Shown piece after piece: positions 4,801-63,237 of a stretch of DNA of 64,000 nucleotides; positions within the stretch are counted from its first letter, which is position 1; each line of letters begins with the position of its first letter. A model generated the notes under the pieces. The model did no database searches, was not told where the DNA came from, and saw nothing but the letters and a program-made list of their open reading frames with translations. This stretch comes from Escherichia phage FP43. Made by a program: the position numbers and the translations under genes. The stretch lies in the sequence record MN648445; one strand, given 5' to 3'.

Positions 4801-4862
4801 GGGGTTTACATCTTCCTCTAGGCATGATATGATGTACTTACACCAACCAAGAGGAAAACATT

Positions 4863-5237
4863 ATGAATATGTCTCAAGCAATTTTTACTGCAATCACCGA
4901 AAACACAACTGTTGAAGTAGTTTCTCCGCTAGCAACCTACGTTATTCTTGCTCCTAAAACTATTGTATCTCGTATGGAAAACATGGGCAAACGTATCGTA
5001 CAAATTGTTGGAGCCGGAAATCAAAAACTTGATTATCTGCGAACCATCAAAGCTTATGAACATTTCCAACTCGAAAAAGGTTCTCCTATCCAGGTAGAAC
5101 TCGTAAATGGTGATATCGTTCGAGCAATGTTCCATCATTTCTATGCATTGAATGACCCATCTAAAGCGGTTCGTTTAATTGCATACGACGCAAACCAAAA
5201 CGAAATCAACGCAGATATATCTAAATTACGTTTTTAA
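4863..5237 (+). CDS. hypothetical protein (61.x/dmd region)
   Basis: 124-aa ORF, co-directional in early-gene block; no recognisable motif. Confidence 0.6.
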   Translation: MNMSQAIFTAITENTTVEVVSPLATYVILAPKTIVSRMENMGKRIVQIVGAGNQKLDYLRTIKAYEHFQLEKGSPIQVELVNGDIVRAMFHHFYALNDPSKAVRLIAYDANQNEINADISKLRF

Positions 5238-5288
5238 GTTTACTTCTCCAGTAGTTGTGTTATTATAGACCTATCAACTACTGGAGAA
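5238..5288 (+). promoter_or_regulatory. early-type promoter (GTTTAC 5238-5243, TATTAT 5261-5266) embedded in 14-bp inverted repeat 5244-5257/5275-5288
   Basis: sigma70-like -35/-10 spacing; perfect inverted repeat TTCTCCAGTAGTTG/CAACTACTGGAGAA with -10 in the loop; 5 nt upstream of ORF 5293. Confidence 0.6.
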
Positions 5289-5292
5289 CAAA

Positions 5293-5610
5293 ATGAAAAC
5301 CATCGATTGTAAAGCAGAATTTAAGATTTTTTATCACGGTTCAAGTAGTTCAGCTAACATCGAAAACATGCTTTGTCCTCCTGAAGAAACAGGAGTTCTG
5401 TCTGAAACCGGACGTAAGAAAAACTTGAATCGTGTATTCTTTACTGAAGATATCGGTTTAGCAAAGATTTATGCAGGACGAGCCGCACGCTCTTATGGAG
5501 GTGAACCGCGTCTCTATCGAGTAATTTCTCCGGTAGACGTAGTTCAAATGAATAATACTAAAGGTGCTACAGTTTATCACGCTGAATGGGCATTTTGCGA
5601 GGAAATATGA
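5293..5610 (+). CDS. hypothetical protein
   Basis: 105-aa ORF; stop overlaps dmd start (ATGA); contains YHGSSS ... YAGRAARSY ... YHAEW stretches. Confidence 0.6.
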   Translation: MKTIDCKAEFKIFYHGSSSSANIENMLCPPEETGVLSETGRKKNLNRVFFTEDIGLAKIYAGRAARSYGGEPRLYRVISPVDVVQMNNTKGATVYHAEWAFCEEI

Positions 5611-6549: not shown

Positions 6550-6584
6550 GTTTACATTATAGATGGACTATAGTATAGTAGTCC
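6550..6584 (+). promoter_or_regulatory. early-type promoter with short stem-loop (GGACTA/TAGTCC)
   Basis: GTTTAC 6550-6555; inverted repeat 6565-6570/6579-6584 spanning the -10 region; upstream of sp. Confidence 0.5.
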
Positions 6585-6608
6585 TATCAAATCAACTAAG
6601 GAGTTAAA

Positions 6609-6902
6609 ATGAAAAAGTTATCATTGGCAGCAATCTTACTTGCAGTATCATGTGCACCGGCTCCAGTTACAGCAGGTTATGATAAAGACCTCTGTGAGTG
6701 GTCAATGACTGCAAATCAAGAAGATGTTGAACATCAAATCTTCGCTGATATCATGAACATTACTAAACGAGACCGTCCTAATATGGTTAATAAAGTTGTT
6801 GAACAACTTAAGTCTGGCGGTATCATGCAGTACAACTATGTTTTGTATTGTGACCCTAATTTCGATAACAAAGATATCGTAACCGAAATCACAGGTGAAT
6901 AA
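6609..6902 (+). CDS. sp: Spackle periplasmic protein (superinfection exclusion / lysozyme inhibitor)
   Basis: 97 aa with signal peptide; AGYDKDLCEWSMTA ... MQYNYVLYCD matches recalled T4 Sp (61.3). Confidence 0.75.
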   Translation: MKKLSLAAILLAVSCAPAPVTAGYDKDLCEWSMTANQEDVEHQIFADIMNITKRDRPNMVNKVVEQLKSGGIMQYNYVLYCDPNFDNKDIVTEITGE

Positions 6903-17939: not shown

Positions 17940-17990
17940 GTTTACTTCTCCTCTGGTTTTGATATTATAACCATATCAACCAGAGGAGAA
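17940..17990 (+). promoter_or_regulatory. early-type promoter (GTTTAC 17940-17945, TATTAT 17963-17968) inside 13-bp inverted repeat 17946-17958/17978-17990
   Basis: perfect stem TTCTCCTCTGGTT/AACCAGAGGAGAA; loop carries the -10; right arm contains the GAGGAG RBS of ORF 17995. Confidence 0.65.
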
Positions 17991-17994
17991 TAAT

Positions 17995-18519
17995 ATGTTA
18001 GTTTACCGCGTAGAACGTAGTTTTTGTACTCAACGTGAATCATTACCAGGAATTGTTATCGAAGACGGTAAAGCCGTCAGAATTTGGGAAACCTCTTGGA
18101 ATAAAGAACCTCGCTCACCTTACGGTTGGTCTGGCACTGACAACTCTGAAGAAACATGGGAGTTCCTTGATAAGCATGGAATACTCTCAGGTAACTTCTA
18201 CCATCACGGCGACAACTATAATGTCCCTAATCGTCCTACAGTAAATGAAGACAAACTTCTTGAACAAAATATCTTAAGATACCATAGAATTGAGTACACA
18301 TTTGAATTGAGTGAAGATTGGGCTCAAGGGTTCTATTTTGGATTTGAAAGCGTTGACGCGGTTTATGCATGGTTTGATGACCAGGTGGATGTTGAACTCT
18401 TGAAAGCTAAAGGATACTACATCGCGGTCTATGAAGCACCTGATTTCATCCTCGGAAGTTGTCAATTAATGTTTAGACGTTCATTGGCAGAACAAGTTGA
18501 TTTTATTTTGCTAAAATGA
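17995..18519 (+). CDS. hypothetical protein
   Basis: 174-aa ORF. Confidence 0.6.
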   Translation: MLVYRVERSFCTQRESLPGIVIEDGKAVRIWETSWNKEPRSPYGWSGTDNSEETWEFLDKHGILSGNFYHHGDNYNVPNRPTVNEDKLLEQNILRYHRIEYTFELSEDWAQGFYFGFESVDAVYAWFDDQVDVELLKAKGYYIAVYEAPDFILGSCQLMFRRSLAEQVDFILLK

Positions 18520-27144: not shown

Positions 27145-27181
27145 GTTTACAACTAAGTAGGACTATGATATAGTAGTCCTA
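27145..27181 (+). promoter_or_regulatory. early-type promoter with 8-bp stem (TAGGACTA/TAGTCCTA)
   Basis: GTTTAC 27145-27150; inverted repeat 27158-27165/27174-27181. Confidence 0.55.
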
Positions 27182-27200
27182 TCTAAAAGAGGATAACATC

Positions 27201-27464
27201 ATGAAATTTAAATTTTTCTACGCAAAACATAAAGTGACTGGTGAGTTTGTTTCAATGTACAACACCGCAGATGACGAAGGGATGATTTATACTCATTTAG
27301 GTCTATCTCATTGGGACTCGGACGTGCCTTATATGTCATCTGAAGCCGAAATAACTCGTCTGGTTAACGGGCATATGAACGACCATTTTAATGTTATTCT
27401 TTCTAAAGACCTTAAAGAGGTTATCAACAAAGGATATATGGAACTTGCGGAAGTTGAGATATGA
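27201..27464 (+). CDS. hypothetical protein
   Basis: 87-aa ORF. Confidence 0.55.
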   Translation: MKFKFFYAKHKVTGEFVSMYNTADDEGMIYTHLGLSHWDSDVPYMSSEAEITRLVNGHMNDHFNVILSKDLKEVINKGYMELAEVEI

Positions 27465-28782: not shown

Positions 28783-30108
28783 ATGCAATTGAATTCTCGT
28801 AATCTAAAAAGTATTATTGATAACGAAGCCTTAGCATATGCGATGTACACCGTTGAAAACCGTGCAATCCCAAACATGATTGATGGATTTAAGCCGGTTC
28901 AACGTTTTGTGGTTCATCGTGCATTAGATTTGGCTCGTGGTAATAAAGAAAAATTTCATAAACTTGCGTCAATTGCAGGCGGTGTTGCAGATTTAGGTTA
29001 TCACCATGGTGAATCTTCTGCACAAGATGCAGGTGCATTGATGGCTAACACATGGAACAACAACTATCCACTGTTAGATGGCCAAGGCAACTTTGGTTCT
29101 AGAACAGTCCAAAAAGCTGCAGCATCTCGTTATATTTTTGCTCGTGTAAGTAAAAATTTCTATAACGTATATAAAGATACTGAATATGCTCCAGCTCATG
29201 AAGATAAAGAACACATTCCACCAAAATTCTATCTTCCTATTATTCCGACAGTTCTTTTGAATGGCGTCTCTGGTATTGCAACCGGTTACGCAACAAATAT
29301 TCTGCCTCATAGTTTTAAATCGGTCAAAAAGGCTGTATTACAAGCTCTTCAAGGTAAAAATGTCACTAAGCCAAAAGTTGAATTCCCGGAATTCCGTGGT
29401 GAAGTGCATGAAGTTGATGGGCGTTATGAGATTCACGGAACATACAAGTTCACATCTCGTACTCAAATGCAGATAACTGAAATCCCATATAAATTCGACC
29501 GTGAAACGTATGTGAGTAAGGTTCTTGACCCGTTGGAAGACAAAGGTCTAATCTCATGGGAAGATGATTGTGGTGAACACGGCTTTGGGTTTAAGGTGAA
29601 GTTCCGTAAAGAGTACTCGCTTCCTGATGATGAAGAGCTACGTCATGAAAAAATCATGAAAGATTTTAGTCTCATCGAACGTCGTTCACAAAACATCACA
29701 GTGATTAATGAAAAGGGTAAATTAGCGGTCTACGATAATGTAGTAGACTTAATCAAAGATTTTGTTGAAGTCCGTAAGACTTACGTTCAGAAACGTATTG
29801 ACAACAAAATCATTGAATCTGAAAAAGCATTTAAACTGGCTTTTGCTAAGGCACACTTCATCAAAAAAGTTATCAGTGGCGAAATTGTGATTCAAGGCAA
29901 GACCCGTAAAGCTTTGACTGAAGAGCTAGCACAAATCGAAATGTACAAAGAACATGTCGATAAACTGGTGGGTCTTAACATCTTCCATATCACTTCCGAT
30001 GAAGCACGTAAACTAGCAGAAGAAGCTAAAGCTAAGAAAGAAGAAAATGAGTATTGGAAGTCTACTGATGTTGTGACAGAGTACACTAAAGACTTGGAGG
30101 CACTTTGA
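28783..30108 (+). CDS. 52: DNA topoisomerase II medium subunit (GyrA-like)
   Basis: 441 aa; N-terminal AMYTVENRAIPNMIDGFKPVQRF typical of type II topoisomerase A subunits. Confidence 0.9.
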   Translation: MQLNSRNLKSIIDNEALAYAMYTVENRAIPNMIDGFKPVQRFVVHRALDLARGNKEKFHKLASIAGGVADLGYHHGESSAQDAGALMANTWNNNYPLLDGQGNFGSRTVQKAAASRYIFARVSKNFYNVYKDTEYAPAHEDKEHIPPKFYLPIIPTVLLNGVSGIATGYATNILPHSFKSVKKAVLQALQGKNVTKPKVEFPEFRGEVHEVDGRYEIHGTYKFTSRTQMQITEIPYKFDRETYVSKVLDPLEDKGLISWEDDCGEHGFGFKVKFRKEYSLPDDEELRHEKIMKDFSLIERRSQNITVINEKGKLAVYDNVVDLIKDFVEVRKTYVQKRIDNKIIESEKAFKLAFAKAHFIKKVISGEIVIQGKTRKALTEELAQIEMYKEHVDKLVGLNIFHITSDEARKLAEEAKAKKEENEYWKSTDVVTEYTKDLEAL

Positions 30109-30184
30109 GTGCCCTAGCCTTAGGATTTCTAGGTGCAATAGCTGCACTAGTGATTTGGCTGTATTGGTTAGACAAACATGATTA

Positions 30185-30204
30185 GGGAGCTTCGGCTCCC
30201 TTTT
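30185..30204 (+). terminator. rho-independent terminator
   Basis: GGGAGC-TTCG-GCTCCC followed by TTTT. Confidence 0.7.
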
Positions 30205-30225
30205 GTGTTTTTTTCTCACAAAACA

Positions 30226-30296
30226 GTTTACATGTGCTTCAAACGTGATATTATAGACCTATCAAAACAAAACAACCAAATTGGAGAAATAAAATG
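30226..30296 (+). repeat. promoter/5'UTR cassette copy A (early-type promoter GTTTAC/TATTAT plus leader)
   Basis: about 70 nt nearly identical to 30547-30615, ending in AATTTGGAGAAATAAAATGTCTAAA. Confidence 0.7.
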
Positions 30297-30509
30297 TCTA
30301 AAATGAAATTAACCCAAAACACAACTACTCGTTTCGGTAAAGTTAAACCTGGTATGAATGCTCCTCGTAAAGCACTTGTTGAAGAATTAAATTTCTTAGA
30401 AGTTGAAATCAATTCTTTAGTGGTTCGCGGTTCAAATGGACGTCATTTAGAAAAGCTTCGTTCTAAAAAGGCAAAACTTATTGGCCTTATTAAAGAAATG
30501 AGTTTGTAA
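30294..30509 (+). CDS. hypothetical protein (motA.1 position)
   Basis: 71-aa basic ORF. Confidence 0.55.
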   Translation: MSKMKLTQNTTTRFGKVKPGMNAPRKALVEELNFLEVEINSLVVRGSNGRHLEKLRSKKAKLIGLIKEMSL

Positions 30510-30546
30510 ATTTTACCAGGGCTTTTTAAAAAGAGCCCAAAATAAA

Positions 30547-30615
30547 GTTTACTTTTGCTTCAAACATGATATTATAGACCTATCAAAACAAATACTAATT
30601 TGGAGAAATAAAATG
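30547..30615 (+). repeat. promoter/5'UTR cassette copy B
   Basis: direct repeat of 30226-30296 in front of motA. Confidence 0.7.
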
Positions 30616-31245
30616 TCTAAAGTTACTTACATCATCAAAGCTTCTGAAAACGCTCTGAATGAAAAAACTGCTGCAATAATGGTTTATATCATTAAGAACA
30701 ACTTCACCACTGCTGCCAATGTCCGTGAAGCCCTGGAAGCAGAATACAGTGCATCAGTTGTTAACTCTAACATTGGTGTATTGATTAAGAAAGGTTTAGT
30801 CGAAAAATCCGGTGATGGACTTGTAGCAACAGGCGAAGCAATGGATATTATCCAAAAAGCTGCAGACCTCTTTGCCCAAGAAAATGCTCCAGAACTTCTT
30901 CAGAAACGTAACACCAGAAAAGCACGTGGAGTTACTCCTGAAATGCATGAATTAGCAAACTTTGTTTTTGAAAATATTAAAGATAAAGTTGAAGTTAAAG
31001 AAATTGGTGAAAACCGTAGTAACTTAGAAGTTCGATTCGCTAAACGAGTTCTAGGCATTCGCCAAATTGAAATTCGACGAGATGGCGCTCTTAGAATCTT
31101 TGCATACAACATGTCAGAAACTGAATCAAAGCTGTTTACTTCTCTTGAAAATGATGTTAAGATTAAGATCGGTGGTAAATATACTTACATTGACTTCCCT
31201 AATGTGTCTAAAGAAATCATTACCCTTGTAACTAACGTACTGTGA
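30613..31245 (+). CDS. motA: MotA middle-transcription activator
   Basis: 210 aa; MSKVTYIIKAS ... NSNIGVLIKKGLVEKSGDGL matches recalled T4 MotA. Confidence 0.85.
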   Translation: MSKVTYIIKASENALNEKTAAIMVYIIKNNFTTAANVREALEAEYSASVVNSNIGVLIKKGLVEKSGDGLVATGEAMDIIQKAADLFAQENAPELLQKRNTRKARGVTPEMHELANFVFENIKDKVEVKEIGENRSNLEVRFAKRVLGIRQIEIRRDGALRIFAYNMSETESKLFTSLENDVKIKIGGKYTYIDFPNVSKEIITLVTNVL

Positions 31246-33106: not shown

Positions 33107-33379
33107 ATGAATAAAGACATTGAAATCGTACGTGAAATTATTACTATTGCTTCTATTTTGATTAAATTCTCTAGGGAAGATATTGTTGAAGACCGAGCAA
33201 GTTTCATCGGATTCTTGAATGAGATTGGAATTAAAAAAGATGGTCGGCAGCTAAATCAGAATTCGTTCAGAAAACTAATTACAAATTTAACTGCCGAAGA
33301 AAAGAAAACACTGATTAGTGAATTCAATGAAGGTTTTGAAAATATTTATCGTCATTTAGCGATGTATTCTAACAACTAA
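33107..33379 (+). CDS. asiA: AsiA anti-sigma70 factor
   Basis: 90 aa; VREIITIASILIKFSREDIVE ... LNEIGI matches recalled T4 AsiA. Confidence 0.9.
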   Translation: MNKDIEIVREIITIASILIKFSREDIVEDRASFIGFLNEIGIKKDGRQLNQNSFRKLITNLTAEEKKTLISEFNEGFENIYRHLAMYSNN

Positions 33380-39619: not shown

Positions 39620-42600
39620 TTATTCAATCCACTCAAATTTAACAGATTTATTCACAGGGTCTGGAATAACGCGGACATTACCAATCCTTAAGAAATCCCT
39701 TATTGTCAAGTTTCCGATTGTTGCATTATCAGAAGGTAAAGCACCAATATCAGAAGGTTGAGGAGGGTTTCCACCATCAAATACCTGAACAAAACTTGAC
39801 CAAGAATTTTTAGTTTTCTGCCATGTACGTGTCCAACGGGTTGTACGTGCCTCTGGAGTTGTTGGATAAGTAATCCAATCTTGGTAAAGCGAATCAAGTG
39901 TATTACCAAACTGAGTCAATGTACCAGGAGATTTAACTTCTTCGCCACGTTCTAAGTATGGAAGCCCAGTCACTTCATTAGTTTTTTCAACCATTTTAAA
40001 ATAACCCGGGAACTGGTTATAAGTGGCTGAATCATTAATATCGATTGACCAGAATCCTACGGTATCAGATGTTGGCGCGCGGGTATATAAATCAGATGCT
40101 TTAGTACCCTGAGAACGAATTCTCGAGTTAACAGTTAAACCACCTGAATTTATAGTAGCACCTTTGGCAATGATTAAGCCTTCACCAATCGTTACTTGGC
40201 CAGATGCATTATTAATAGCCAAAGGACGTAATCCATTAAATCCACCGGTCTGATCACCGGATGCAGTAAGCATAAAATAGGTATTAGCAGCATCATTACG
40301 AATAAAGAATCCGTAATTACCACTAATTGCTCTGAATGCGTTTGCACTATAGGTTATAAATTCACCCTGTGCTGTCACCGAACGTCCAAATGTTGCCGCA
40401 CCATTAGCATTCAATGTTCCGGATGCATTAACATTAATCGGCCGAACTGTACCGTTGATGCTGAAAGTAATATTACCAAGGTTATCCCGTTGTGAATAAA
40501 AGTGGTTAGATGTTTCATCACCAACTTCAAATATCGTAGCACGAGATGTATCAGAACCGCCGGCGAATTGGTTACCCCATACACGGATATTCATCGCCTG
40601 AGCAGGGTTGTTTCCAGTTTGTGGACCTTTTTCAAATATTAAGCGAGTTGAAGCACCTGTATTAGAAATAGTTAATGTACTATTAGCAGATACCGAACCA
40701 CCAAACGTAGCAGTACTAGATGATACAAGAGGGGCACTCAGATTCGTTTGTTGGGTTAAGGTTAGTGAACCATTAACCGTCTGCGCAATGTCCCTACGAA
40801 TGAACTGAGATGAATCTAGGCCATCTAATAAATTTGCATCAGCAGCTTTAGCTTTCAATGGCAAATAGTTAGCAAGTACACGGTTTAATTCATATGGAGA
40901 TATAGCATAGCTATTTTTTTCATACGATTCTAAAGGTTGTGTTGAACCAACTGTATCATTACCAACAAATGTAATAGAACCAGATGAAGTTTTAACGAAT
41001 CCGCGAATTGCTGTAGTAGCAGCCCATGTTGGTTCATTCTGGACAATCCATTTTAAATTCTTAGGAGATACAGCAGTATTAGCAGAAGTTCCTGTTACAG
41101 TTTCAGCCTGAGTAGCAACCTTAATTACGCCTTCAGACGTTTCAGTGGACTTAGTCCCTAAAAGCTTTTTAGGAGTAATAAGAACATCATCTAAAGTTCC
41201 TGCATTAGATTCTGCCTGGGTCGCTACGCGAAGTGTACCACGTTGTGTTTCATTTGCTTTATAAATATCAAGAGTATAATGGTTCCACAAGGTTCCTTCT
41301 TCAATAAGTCCGGAATCAGAATTAACACTGGTACGGTCAGAAGAATCAAAATGAGTTTTAATTTTCAGTGGAGTCGAGATACGAGTATCATCAGTTCCAG
41401 TATCAAATTCAACTTGCGTAGCAATTTCGGCTATGCCGGATAATCCTTCCGTAGCTTTCCTATCATTTAACGTCTTAGGCGTTACTGCACGTGTATAATC
41501 AGTCCCAGCATTAGTTTCTGCTTGCGTAGCAATTTCAATTAAACCAATACGTCCATCAGTAGAAGTTTTCTTATGTAGTGTTTCAGGAGTTACTACAGCG
41601 TGAGAATAACCTGCTTGTGATTGACCAGCAATTACTTCACTATCAACAGCTAAAATTACTGCACCTTGTTGAGCATAAGTTGCTTTATATTGGTCAAGGG
41701 CTTTAGGAGAAATAGTTAAATTATTTACGGTTTTATTATAAACGTTAGTGCCTGCAGCCCCACGAGTTTCAGCAGGAGTAGCAGAAGTAGTTGATACATA
41801 TTTAACTATACCAGACAGTGTTTCAGAACCCTGACGTGCCTGTAATTTCTTAGGTGTAATAATCGTTGTGTCATCAAGACCAGCATCGGTTTCAACCTGA
41901 GTAGCAATTTCAGCAAGACCACGACGAGTTTCAGTTGCTGTACGCTCATTTAATTTTTTAGGCGTAACAATAGTATCGTCCACAAATGCTGCTGTGGAAT
42001 TCTGGTTAACTTGTGCTGTTGTAGCAATTTTAGCGATACCACGTCGAGCTTCAGTTGCTGTACGATTTGCCAACGTTTCAGGAGTAATAGCCACTTCTTT
42101 AGCTGGAGTATTCTCTAAATCAACATTTGCTTGCGCTTGAGTAGCAAGAGCAATAACACCTAAACGAGCTCGTGTAGCATCAGTTCCAGCATCGACACGT
42201 TCTACGGTTGGGACGTTTTGTTGAACAACCCAATAACGTGTACCAGCAACGGTGTCTTCGATATACGCTAATTCTAATACAGGAACATATGAAGTAGTGC
42301 CATTGAATTCTAGTTCAGTAACAGAGACCCATTGAGCATCAGGTGGATATTCAGAACGTTTAGGGAACTGAAGCAATGCAACAGTGGAAGCAATTGTATC
42401 ACCTTCGGCAGCTTTAATTTTTACTGTTTGGCCTTTACGCATGTAGTTCATTGAAATTTTAACAGTGTCACCACTCAAAATTCCGGTAGGCAGCGTAAGA
42501 TTAATAGTTCCGGTTGTAGCGTTATTTGTGCCAAAGATAAGAACTTCTTCATTTGGACGAATATTTGAATCCGCACGGATAATACGAAGACGCGATTTCT

Positions 42601-46831: not shown

Positions 46832-46860
46832 GTTTACTTCCTCCAAGGACATGATACTAT
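46832..46860 (+). promoter_or_regulatory. early-type promoter
   Basis: GTTTACTTCC and GATACTATAGACCTATCA. Confidence 0.5.
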
Positions 46861-46889
46861 AGACCTATCAACAACATGAGGAAATCAAG

Positions 46890-47276
46890 ATGGAAATCGG
46901 AAAAACTTATATCATTAACCCTTTATTTAAAGATGACTTTGTCCAAGAAGCTCCACGCAATAACAGCCGGATGCTAGATTTGATCGAGAAACATGGCCCA
47001 AGTTTTGTTGTGGAAGAAGATGAATATGATGGCGACGGCTACAACGTAGTATGTGTAACCATGGAAGATGGCACAGAATGTTCTGCTGGCGGTCCGGCAG
47101 AAACTTATTTTGAAATTTATCCTGACGAGTTCAAATACTTCAACGAGGTGACTTTAGAAAAGCCTCAACCTATTGACGAAGGTATAGTTTTAGGTGTAAC
47201 AAAAATTCATTGTGTCGTGGATGAAACTAACGTTGACGAAATCATCGAACTTTTGCAAAAAACTTTTAAAAAGTAG
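46890..47276 (+). CDS. hypothetical protein, paralog 1 of tandem pair
   Basis: M(E/K)IGKTYIINP ... HGPSFVV ... DGTE shared with next ORF. Confidence 0.65.
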   Translation: MEIGKTYIINPLFKDDFVQEAPRNNSRMLDLIEKHGPSFVVEEDEYDGDGYNVVCVTMEDGTECSAGGPAETYFEIYPDEFKYFNEVTLEKPQPIDEGIVLGVTKIHCVVDETNVDEIIELLQKTFKK

Positions 47277-47313: not shown

Positions 47314-47337
47314 CAAAACAAATGAGAGGAAATCAAA

Positions 47338-47700
47338 ATGAAAATTGGAAAAACTTATATCATCAATCCAGAATGTAAAGCTATCTTCGCCAATGAATGC
47401 CCACAAAACGCCGATATGCTGGCTTTGATTGAGCTTCATGGTCCTAGTTTTGTTGTAAAAGACATGAACACAGATTATGATGATGATAAATGTGTAACCC
47501 GTGTAACTATGCGAGACGGTACTGAATTCGGTTTTGATGGTAAGCCAGGTTCATATTTTGAGCTTTATGATGATGAGTTTAAACACTTCATCGAGGTATC
47601 TCCAGAGTCTATTTCTAAACAATCACTCATCTTTGAAGTGACTACGGAAAATGCTCGAGATGTGATTGCAGAAATTAAAGAAATTTTTGGAATAAAATAG
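47338..47700 (+). CDS. hypothetical protein, paralog 2 of tandem pair
   Basis: see paralog 1. Confidence 0.65.
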   Translation: MKIGKTYIINPECKAIFANECPQNADMLALIELHGPSFVVKDMNTDYDDDKCVTRVTMRDGTEFGFDGKPGSYFELYDDEFKHFIEVSPESISKQSLIFEVTTENARDVIAEIKEIFGIK

Positions 47701-56434: not shown

Positions 56435-56649
56435 CTAAAGAACAGCATGAATACATTAAAGGGCTTATCTATGAATCTGAAATGGCGGCTATGATTTATG
56501 GGCGCCAGATTCAACGATTAGAATCTTTGCCTCCGACTAATGACCGCTTGTTAGTTCAGTCTCGTGCTAATCTGAAAAATGAATATCAGAATAAGTGGGC
56601 AGTAGCGACTAAAGCTCTTCACGAGTATATTGAATCTTTAGTAAAATAG
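56425..56649 (+). CDS. hypothetical protein
   Basis: 74-aa ORF. Confidence 0.5.
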   Translation: MPMTKEQHEYIKGLIYESEMAAMIYGRQIQRLESLPPTNDRLLVQSRANLKNEYQNKWAVATKALHEYIESLVK

Positions 56650-56684
56650 TTTACAAACTCTCAGGAGCAGAGTATAATGCTCCT
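56649..56684 (+). promoter_or_regulatory. early-type promoter cassette with 7-bp stem (AGGAGCA/TGCTCCT) around TATAAT
   Basis: GTTTACAAACTCTCAGGAGCAGAGTATAATGCTCCT; paired with the 27918 cassette. Confidence 0.6.
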
Positions 56685-56706
56685 ATGGATAATTGAGGAA
56701 ATCTAA

Positions 56707-57005
56707 ATGAAAACATTACTAGAGAATTACATCAAACGGTCTGATGAGTATATTGATATCTGCCGTGGAATGTCACTTGGCAATTATGACAAAGATGCAG
56801 CAAAGGCACTAGATGAAGCAGGTAAAGCTCTTCGTAAAGCTGCTAAAGAAAAAGGGTTGGATTTGCAACAACTCAAAAGTCATATGATTAAATTTATTTC
56901 TTCAAACGTTAGAAGTACGTCAATTAATAAAAACGTTGCTGAAATTAATAAAGACCGGCGCGAGCATAACATTCGTATTCTTGAAATTTTCTTAGGAATA
57001 AAATA

Positions 57006-62800: not shown

Positions 62801-62842
62801 AGTTTACTTTGGTACAGGTTATGTTATTATAGACCTGTACCA
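62801..62842 (+). promoter_or_regulatory. early-type promoter inside 11-bp inverted repeat (TTGGTACAGGT/ACCTGTACCAA)
   Basis: GTTTAC 62801-62806; stem 62808-62818/62832-62842; TATTAT 62824-62829 in loop. Confidence 0.6.
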
Positions 62843-62871
62843 ACAAACAACTTAAACATCTGGAGAATAAA

Positions 62872-63237
62872 ATGAACTACATCAACTTCGAACGCAAATA
62901 TGTTTCTAACGGTATCGCTGGTTCTTCTGAAGTTATTTGCTTATGGAAACATAAAAATGGTTCAGTATGTGAAATTGAGCAGTATATGACTCCTAATTAC
63001 GTTTATATGCGATTTGAAAATGGCATCACGGTTTCAATCACGATGGAAGGTTCCAACTTCAAAATTGCATTAGATGACGATTTCCGTCAGCGTGATTTAG
63101 GTACTCATCCTTGCTGGAATGGTGATAATCGTAAACTTCTGGTTAAAACTTGGATTCGTCATATCCTGAGTAACCGAGCTAAACCTGAACATCTCGAAGC
63201 AATCTTTGATGTAGTTCTTAATGAATTCGATATCTAA
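62872..63237 (+). CDS. hypothetical protein
   Basis: 121-aa ORF. Confidence 0.6.
   Translation: MNYINFERKYVSNGIAGSSEVICLWKHKNGSVCEIEQYMTPNYVYMRFENGITVSITMEGSNFKIALDDDFRQRDLGTHPCWNGDNRKLLVKTWIRHILSNRAKPEHLEAIFDVVLNEFDI

Follow-up and report, generated by a model that had tools for sequence, protein, structure and literature searches.

Organization of the region between gene 52 and motA

The 64,000-nt stretch of DNA from Escherichia phage FP43 (MN648445) analyzed here, referred to as the window, contains two closely similar sequences, designated repeat copies A and B, each comprising a predicted early promoter, a leader, and a translation initiation region; copy A precedes a 71-amino-acid (aa) open reading frame (ORF), and copy B precedes motA. 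The window belongs to a T4-like phage of the genus Mosigvirus (RB69 group). Elements at the locus were arranged in the order gene 52, terminator, promoter A, 71-aa orphan gene, hairpin, promoter B, and motA (Table 1), and motA was followed by arn.4 to arn.1, asiA (nt 33107-33379), and, on the opposite strand, the holin gene t. This local order, gene 52, small intergenic region, motA, arn genes, and asiA, is the same as in T4 and RB69. The 1.8 kb around the repeat pair shared 98-99% identity with Shigella phage SHSML-52-1 and about 150 other records.

Table 1 Features of the gene 52-motA region in the window (SD, Shine-Dalgarno sequence)
Feature	Position (nt)	Strand	Evidence and details
Gene 52, topoisomerase II medium subunit; upstream border of the slot	28783-30108	+	441-aa ORF; Pfam DNA_topoisoIV, 6.5e-78; annotated as gp52 in relatives
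Possible 26-aa hydrophobic mini-ORF, MSALALGFLGAIAALVIWLYWLDKHD	30105-30185	+	TTG start overlapping the gene 52 stop; uncertain
Stem-loop A, predicted intrinsic terminator GGGAGC-UUCG-GCUCCC plus U-run	30184-30214	+	Terminator scan; fold -16.8 kcal/mol, z = -4.4
Repeat copy A: predicted early sigma-70 promoter, leader, initiation region	30226-30302	+	Alignment, promoter scan; -35 GTTTAC 30226-30231; TGn 30246-30248; -10 TATTAT 30249-30254; SD GGAG 30283-30286; ATG 30294; repeat ends after codon 3 (MSK)
71-aa basic orphan gene, PHROG 6200 of no known function	30294-30509	+	ORF list; PHROG 6200, 1e-39
Stem-loop B, GGGCUUUU-UAAA-AAGAGCCC	30519-30538	+	RNA fold -11.0 kcal/mol, z = -2.7
Repeat copy B: predicted motA early promoter, leader, initiation region	30547-30621	+	Orthologous promoters in Marfavirus, Dhakavirus, and other genera; -35 GTTTAC 30547-30552; -10 TATTAT 30570-30575; SD GGAG 30602-30605; ATG 30613
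motA, activator of middle transcription; downstream border of the slot	30613-31245	+	Pfam MotA_activ, 2.3e-39, and MotCF, 2.2e-8; PHROG 1345, 7.8e-90

Both promoters consisted of TTTACA or TTTACT, a 16-nt spacer (17 nt when counted from GTTTAC), TATTAT, and an extended -10 TG; AT-rich sequences, TTTTGTGTTTTTTTCTCACAAAACA and AAAATAAA, were located upstream, and GGAG was positioned 7 nt before the ATG in both copies. Promoter activity is predicted for the two copies from these elements, and both are probably immediate-early by analogy with T4, in which motA is an early gene and early promoters are of the strong UP/-35/TGn/-10 type (PMC2988021). The counterpart of stem-loop A is annotated as a terminator in phages SA79RD and WFL6982. 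Stem-loop B was not detected by the terminator scan, was called a terminator in SA79RD by one program only, and was conserved in JS98 and in the T4-type relative L022; since no U-run follows it, it may be an attenuator at best. The A-rich leaders had predicted folds no better than those of shuffled sequence, and nt 29900-30900 contained no Rfam match at E <= 1 and no tRNA; a structured regulatory RNA in the leader was dropped on these grounds.

Similarity between the two copies

Copies A and B were identical at 69 of 77 positions in a pairwise alignment (89.6% global identity) and were collinear from GTTTAC to ATGTCTAAA, their starts being 321 bp apart. Exact blocks common to both were TGCTTCAAAC (10 nt), TGATATTATAGACCTATCAAAACAAA (26 nt), and TTGGAGAAATAAAATGTCTAAA (22 nt), and a weaker similarity was detected from 9 nt 5′ of the repeats (30217-30271 versus 30538-30592, 89%; repeat finder, family D1). 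The initial annotation, made from the letters of the window, had described near-identity through promoter, leader, ribosome binding site, and first codons, and the alignment bears this out. Both genes start with MSK, as it had stated, the repeat running through codon 3 in the two copies, and the repeats extend 6 nt beyond the ends given there (30296 and 30615), to 30302 and 30621. Of the "tandem duplication" that it proposed, the duplication stands and the tandem arrangement does not: the copies do not abut head to tail but form direct repeats that flank a 216-nt ORF and a hairpin. The proteins encoded downstream were also rightly taken to be unrelated, one being a basic 71-aa protein without a Pfam family above threshold and the other MotA.

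Much of the repeat core, GTTTAC-N17-TGATATTATAGACCTATCAA, corresponds to the consensus for early promoters in this phage, found as 7 copies in one repeat-finder family and, by pattern scan, at about 22 sites on the plus strand of the window, each then followed by an SD and an ATG. Therefore, the promoter family (20 full cassettes in the window, 190 pairs) was used as the null for similarity instead of random sequence. Identity within this background averaged 62.0% (standard deviation 5.3%) with 75.3% for the second-best pair, placing the A/B pair at about 5 standard deviations above it. The 22-mer from the SD to codon 3 and a 37-mer pattern from spacer to leader matched within the window only at copies A and B when up to 3 mismatches were allowed; no such match arose in 100 shuffles. 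Thus, the likeness goes beyond generic promoter hexamers, as had been proposed, with spacer, leader, and 22-nt block private to the two copies, while part of it belongs to the genome-wide early-promoter consensus.

Presence, junctions, and mosaics in Mosigvirus

With an 851-nt query, 75 phage records covered the entire two-copy structure with the ORF, whereas about as many Mosigvirus records matched in two pieces at about 71% coverage, corresponding to a locus about 319 bp shorter. This presence/absence polymorphism divides the close Mosigvirus relatives, about half of which, RB69 included, lacked the 71-aa gene and possessed one hybrid cassette instead, with its junction inside the repeat; junctions of three types were distinguished. 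An assembly artefact as the source of the repeat was dropped, the same structure being present in about 75 independent genomes. Among the counts from diagnostic junction queries of 45-48 nt, only that for the A-leader-to-ORF junction (72 records) was usable, the others being blurred by motA sites of Klebsiella phages that pass 80% coverage and by partial matches in two-copy genomes that may merge.

Cassettes were extracted from 19 genomes, and the junction classes rest on 9 sequenced single-copy loci. The spacer reads ATGT or ACGT in copy A and TTTT in copy B, and the leader reads ACAAAACAACCAAA in copy A and ACAAATACTAAT in copy B, so that the origin of each part could be read from these markers. 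In all nine single-copy genomes, terminator A or a related terminator was located upstream and motA was intact. Seven of them combined an A spacer with an A leader, which places the crossover within the 22-nt SD-ATG-codon block. RB69 had a crossover within the promoter: its 52-motA intergenic region is 185 bp, versus 504 bp in the window, and its single cassette lies downstream of terminator A and combines an A-like spacer (ACATAT) with a B-type leader. A single genome, F2, had a B spacer with an A leader. Mosaics were also observed among two-copy genomes, with a B spacer in copy A of SA79RD and of UGJNEcP1 and an A leader in copy B of UGJNEcP1. In neighbor-joining trees built from 340 nt of gene 52 and 380 nt of motA, single-copy and two-copy genomes were interspersed, on branches too short for events to be counted. 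Together with the concerted changes described below, the hybrid junctions and mosaics are as expected if unequal crossing-over and gene conversion had taken place repeatedly between the copies, and selection for a consensus does not by itself explain them.

Dhakavirus and the probable direction of copying

In Dhakavirus (JS98, VR5, and C6), the same 71-aa ORF was located between two promoters that are alike only through a 41-nt promoter core. The SD and start of this ORF read ATGGAGACACAAAAATGAATAAG (MNKMK...), and those of Dhakavirus motA read CGGAGATTAAAATGTCTAAA. The two promoters were identical at 41 of 41 positions within JS98 and within VR5, the same C-to-A change relative to JS98 was present in both VR5 copies, and the window promoters matched those of JS98 at 36-38 of 41 positions. 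Because the promoters are identical within a genome and different between genomes, the Dhakavirus pair shows concerted evolution and indicates gene conversion.

In Mosigvirus, the 71-aa ORF starts MSKMK and has the exact 22-mer of motA, TTGGAGAAATAAAATGTCTAAA, which also precedes motA in the Klebsiella Marfavirus PWKp18, a phage without the 71-aa ORF. Since the Dhakavirus ORF start differs and the motA of an ORF-less Marfavirus has the 22-mer, motA was most likely the donor, in the Mosigvirus lineage, of the initiation region and first three codons that the 71-aa ORF now has. A conversion tract originating in the motA cassette would have overwritten the SD and first three codons of the ORF, changing its N-terminus from MNK to MSK and lengthening the repeat from about 41 to about 77 nt; the lengthened repeat would thereby have created the 22-nt block, the site of most of the observed deletion junctions. 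The initial annotation had proposed that a promoter-plus-initiation module was copied in front of another ORF and had suggested looking among relatives for the ORF and its leader. The different initiation region in Dhakavirus and the 22-mer at motA of the ORF-less Marfavirus lend support to this proposal and also give it a direction.

The 71-aa orphan gene

The 71-aa protein has a net charge of about +9. Its ORF was found in 93 phage records, all Mosigvirus or Dhakavirus except 2 listed as Salmonella phages, and a search of 5.8 billion proteins returned 8 clusters only, all phage proteins with at least 73% identity. Against the Dhakavirus orthologues, the ratio of nonsynonymous to synonymous substitution rates (dN/dS) was 0.20-0.25 at a dS of about 1.0, and on account of this ratio the ORF is judged to be a real gene under purifying selection. 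No Pfam family scored above threshold, the best sub-threshold one being RACo_C_ter (E = 0.017). An AlphaFold2 model, with a mean confidence score (pLDDT) of 76, predicted a disordered basic N-terminal tail, in which an invariant RFGKVKPGMN motif was located, and then a two-helix hairpin (residues 23-44 and 50-70). This model, a generic helical hairpin, had no PDB fold match at E <= 0.001. Pfam, PHROG, the protein search, and the model were all considered as sources of a function for the protein, and no assignment was possible from them.

In Escherichia phage ECCR664 (L014, 701-916), the C-terminus of the 71-aa ORF was frameshifted or divergent with an early stop (…KRQNLLALLKK*), and dN/dS relative to the window was 0.8. 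This ORF may be a pseudogene or reflect a sequencing error.

Candidate regulatory signals in leader and spacer

In T4, motA mRNA is inactivated by RegB, which cuts in the GGAG of the SD (PMC2988021), and the RegB/S1 consensus is GGAGRAYARAA (PMC1702504). The site common to both leaders, GGAGAAAUAAA, agreed with this consensus at 9 of 11 positions, deviating at positions 7 and 8, and was predicted to be unpaired. RegB of the RB69 group is described as divergent (PMC1702504, PMC3014915). As an inference from these features, the copied module may have given the orphan gene a motA-like expression, an early burst that is then turned off.

A perfect MotA-box sequence, TTTTGCTTCA, was observed in the spacer of copy B at nt 30553-30562, the counterpart in copy A being ATGTGCTTCA at nt 30232-30241. 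Matches to the box numbered 15 in the window versus 5.9 expected. In T4 middle promoters, the box (a/t)(a/t)(a/t)TGCTT(t/c)A has its centre at -30 and is separated from the -10 by 11-13 bp. Here, the box ends 7 nt before TATTAT and is centred near -24, with no suitable alternative -10 in the sequence; an overlapping middle promoter was thus dropped, the box being about 6 bp too close to the -10. Of 11 motA promoters compared, 8 had GCTT at an identical place in the spacer, namely those of Mosigvirus, Dhakavirus, L022-type T4 relatives, Marfavirus, CGG4-1, Moonvirus (Merlin and CF1), and Karamvirus CC31; GCTT was absent from Kc304 and PM2 and inverted (AAAGCA) in T4. Loci with the spacer MotA box or GCTT were L003, L015, L016, L018, L021, L022, L027, L030, and L031.

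A tentative suggestion, to which we give a low probability, is that MotA, together with the AsiA-modified polymerase, uses the spacer box as an operator to shut off the early promoter of its own gene. Duplication of the cassette would in that case have extended this autoregulation, and RegB sensitivity with it, to the 71-aa gene. If so, the cassette would be a portable "burst-then-off" expression module, and a concrete mechanism would be at hand for part of the still unexplained shut-off of early promoters in T4-like phages.

Proposed mechanism and alternatives

In promoter-early stem-loops (PeSLs), as described by Arbiol et al. (2010, PMC2839356) and Comeau et al. (2014, PMC4122927), a stem-loop and an AT-rich region are combined with a sigma-70 early promoter, and the 3′ end is formed by an SD and start codon. 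They are intergenic, lie in hyperplastic regions, flank orphan genes, and are associated with indels between close relatives, a cassette missing from a close relative being replaced by a single chimeric element (PMC2839356, PMC4122927). In RB49 and phi1, mini-circles with crossovers between the -10 and the SD or ATG were detected by inverse polymerase chain reaction (PCR), and T4-type recombination needs less than 50 bp of homology (PMC2839356, PMC4122927). At the sequence level, the repeat pair is an instance of PeSLs, all of their defining features being present. A sigma-70-like early promoter (TTTACW-N17-TAYWAT) was found in both copies; an adjacent stem-loop was likewise found, with a U-run in A and as a structure of doubtful termination in B; and an orphan gene occupied a variable region with an indel between relatives (RB69 and about half of the Mosigvirus records).

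It is thus very likely that the pair represents PeSL-type cassettes that flank an orphan gene in a variable slot and act as recombination substrates kept alike by conversion. Each cassette would most likely drive immediate-early transcription of its own gene. Terminator A would block read-through from gene 52, and hairpin B would at most attenuate, so that motA would probably also receive transcripts from promoter A. The direct repeats, with starts 321 bp apart, would be substrates for the homologous recombination of the phage itself: unequal crossing-over or excision would remove the ORF and leave one hybrid cassette still expressing an intact motA, the reverse event would insert the ORF, and gene conversion would keep the copies alike.

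Several points weigh against this interpretation. All function of the cassettes, including promoter activity and its timing, is deduced from consensus and comparison, and the recombination pathway and the direction of each single event are likewise read from patterns. Hairpin B has no U-tract, which makes the "terminator" half of the second PeSL weak. Insertion and deletion look the same in any one genome, and the RB69-type arrangement could be an ancestral, never-occupied state. Exchange in the flanking gene 52 or motA between co-infecting phages could spread either allele without events in the repeats, and the flank trees are too shallow for counting events. Strong purifying selection on the promoter, for which identity across genera already reaches 36-38 of 41 positions, also adds to the likeness.

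That no copying took place and both sites converged on an optimal consensus for early promoter and ribosome site is extremely improbable. The recurrence of the GTTTAC-N17-TGATATTATAGACCTATCAA core at many sites of the window, and of TGGAGAAYAAAATG-type ribosome sites at 5238, 62358, and 62802, is in keeping with convergence; it leaves unaccounted for the distance of 5 standard deviations between the A/B pair and its own family, as well as the non-consensus spacer TGCTTCAAAC, leader AAAACAAA, and codons TCTAAA that are private to copies A and B. Convergence is also contradicted by the lineage-specific substitutions present in both copies within Dhakavirus genomes and by the hybrid single copies and mosaic copies of relatives. 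Just as hard to credit is an active mobile element that carries the ORF and uses the repeats as specific sites for a homing endonuclease or a site-specific recombinase. Such a view draws on the many seg and mob homing genes that occupy intergenic slots of T4-like phages. It also draws on the dedicated recombinase at PeSL stem-loops that Arbiol et al. (PMC2839356) leave open. The sole gene between the repeats, however, encodes a 71-aa protein without a nuclease or recombinase domain (a predicted tail plus helical hairpin), and junctions fall at differing places in the repeat instead of at one site.

Less improbable than these two, and still given little weight, is the alternative that likeness is kept by selection for identical regulation. 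The 71-aa protein would then be needed at the time and level of MotA, with promoter strength, a RegB-sensitive GGAG site, and possibly an operator in common, and recombination would be incidental. Conservation of the motA promoter across genera, spacer included, although dS is about 1 in the adjacent ORF, speaks for such selection, as do the purifying selection on the 71-aa ORF, the RegB cut in the GGAG of T4 motA mRNA (PMC2988021), and the match of GGAGAAAUAAA to the RegB/S1 consensus (PMC1702504). Selection alone, however, does not explain the private substitution shared by both VR5 copies, the A/B mosaics, or the hybrid junctions in ORF-less genomes. Moreover, the ORF persists in Dhakavirus with another SD and start, so that the initiation regions need not be identical, and it is missing altogether from about half of the Mosigvirus genomes. 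Recombining PeSL-type cassettes around the orphan gene remain the interpretation preferred here.

The 52-motA slot in other phages

Other occupants of the slot were found with a scan of IMG/VR with MotA (8 loci) and in other phages. T4 has motA.1, a terminator, and one promoter only, with no cassette. The T4-type relatives L022 and L024 possess an unrelated 75-aa ORF, which was present in 168 phage records; Salmonella phage CGG4-1 has an 88-aa ORF between two similar promoters; Citrobacter phage Merlin has three ORFs; and CC31 and CF1 have two each. Judging from these comparisons, the slot from 52/motA.1 to motA is hyperplastic and a general hot spot, holding none or one to three unrelated small genes in other genera.

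In L022 (IMG/VR T4-type contig, 1090-1500), a T4-type motA promoter was located 5′ and a JS98-type hairpin and promoter 3′ of the 75-aa ORF, and the piece repeated on both sides was a 23-nt leader segment, CTATCAAATAAATGAACTGAAAC, not the promoter core. The 26-aa mini-ORF at nt 30105-30185 of the window is the positional counterpart of T4 motA.1 (49 aa). Other counterparts are 34-aa ORFs with ATGA overlaps in JS98, C6, and G2285, which are annotated in G2285 and C6. The mini-ORF had no PHROG match and its counterpart no annotation in RB69; it may represent a remnant in decay or encode a genuine micro-protein. In Escherichia phage G2285 (L009, 356-477), a Mosigvirus, a single A-type cassette was preceded by a motA.1-like ORF and a terminator, AAGGAACCTTCGGGTTCCTT, both of Dhakavirus type; this phage is an inter-genus mosaic with its breakpoint at the same junction.

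Other repeats in the window

Most other early promoters in the window contained an inverted repeat with its 5′ arm in the -35/-10 spacer and its 3′ arm in the leader, often including the SD (5238-5295, 17940-17997, 46832-46889, 4804-4870, 27145-27210, 6550-6617, 56649-56715, and 62802-62880), for example CTCCAGTAGTTG ... CAACTACTGGAG at 5238. By this arrangement, RNA reading through from upstream would sequester the SD and locally started RNA would not. Stem-loops overlapping the -10 are described in the PeSL papers (PMC2839356, PMC4122927). The pair at 30226 and 30547 had no such inverted repeat and a longer leader.

Two neighboring genes 448 bp apart, at 46878-46956 and 47326-47404, were 76% identical over the initial 79 nt, a stretch that takes in SD and N-terminal codons (GAGGAAATCAAGATGGAAATCGGAAAAACTTATATCAT...), and each was preceded by an early promoter (46832 and about 47275); they may be paralogous genes or another cassette duplication. 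In addition, several families of diverged direct repeats with 108-nt periodicity (D2, D5, and D9) were observed at nt 41075-42087, probably reflecting a repetitive protein domain in a tail-fibre-like gene.

Implications

The locus is a clean natural example, clear but ordinary, of the gain, loss, and rewiring of small accessory genes in T4-like phages, in which one regulatory cassette is at once an expression signal and a recombination handle. Recombination between such repeats is already known as a route by which small genes are gained, lost, and shuffled, and no new kind of mechanism is involved. Since the homology runs through the start codon, deletion of the ORF would leave the essential motA perfectly expressed, and for this reason both alleles would be able to circulate at similar frequency. 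For annotation, small genes between 52 and motA should be regarded as cassette-borne and variable, with first codons that can be overwritten by those of a neighbor. For phage engineering, the 52-motA slot with its repeats offers a natural, tolerated insertion site.

Comparison with known systems

As in the PeSLs of RB49 and phi1, the crossover zones here lie between the -35/-10 and the ATG. The published PeSLs come from the pairs RB49/phi1, T4/PST, and KVP40/nt-1, whereas the case described here concerns the RB69 and JS98 groups and the 52-motA slot. It further differs from them in that the repeat enters the coding sequence by three codons, that the downstream partner is the essential regulator gene motA instead of another orphan, and that the second stem-loop has no U-tract and is not a canonical terminator.

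The promoters themselves resemble T4 early promoters (Hinton 2010, PMC2988021) in GTTTAC, the 17-nt spacer, TGn, TATTAT, and the AT-rich upstream region. Unlike the T4 motA promoter, they have another spacer and leader, and their spacer, with the MotA-box-like TGCTTCA, is kept across several genera. Both leaders have a GGAG, predicted to be unpaired, that is followed by an A-rich tract, similar to RegB/S1 sites in T4 early mRNAs (PMC1702504, PMC3014915).

A likeness is also evident to the morons of lambdoid phages (PMC2839356), in which one accessory gene with its own promoter and stem-loop is inserted between two conserved genes. Homologous repeats do not border lambdoid morons, whose arrival is attributed to illegitimate recombination (PMC2839356), whereas at the 52-motA locus the regulatory repeats supply homology through which gain, loss, and conversion of the small gene could proceed.

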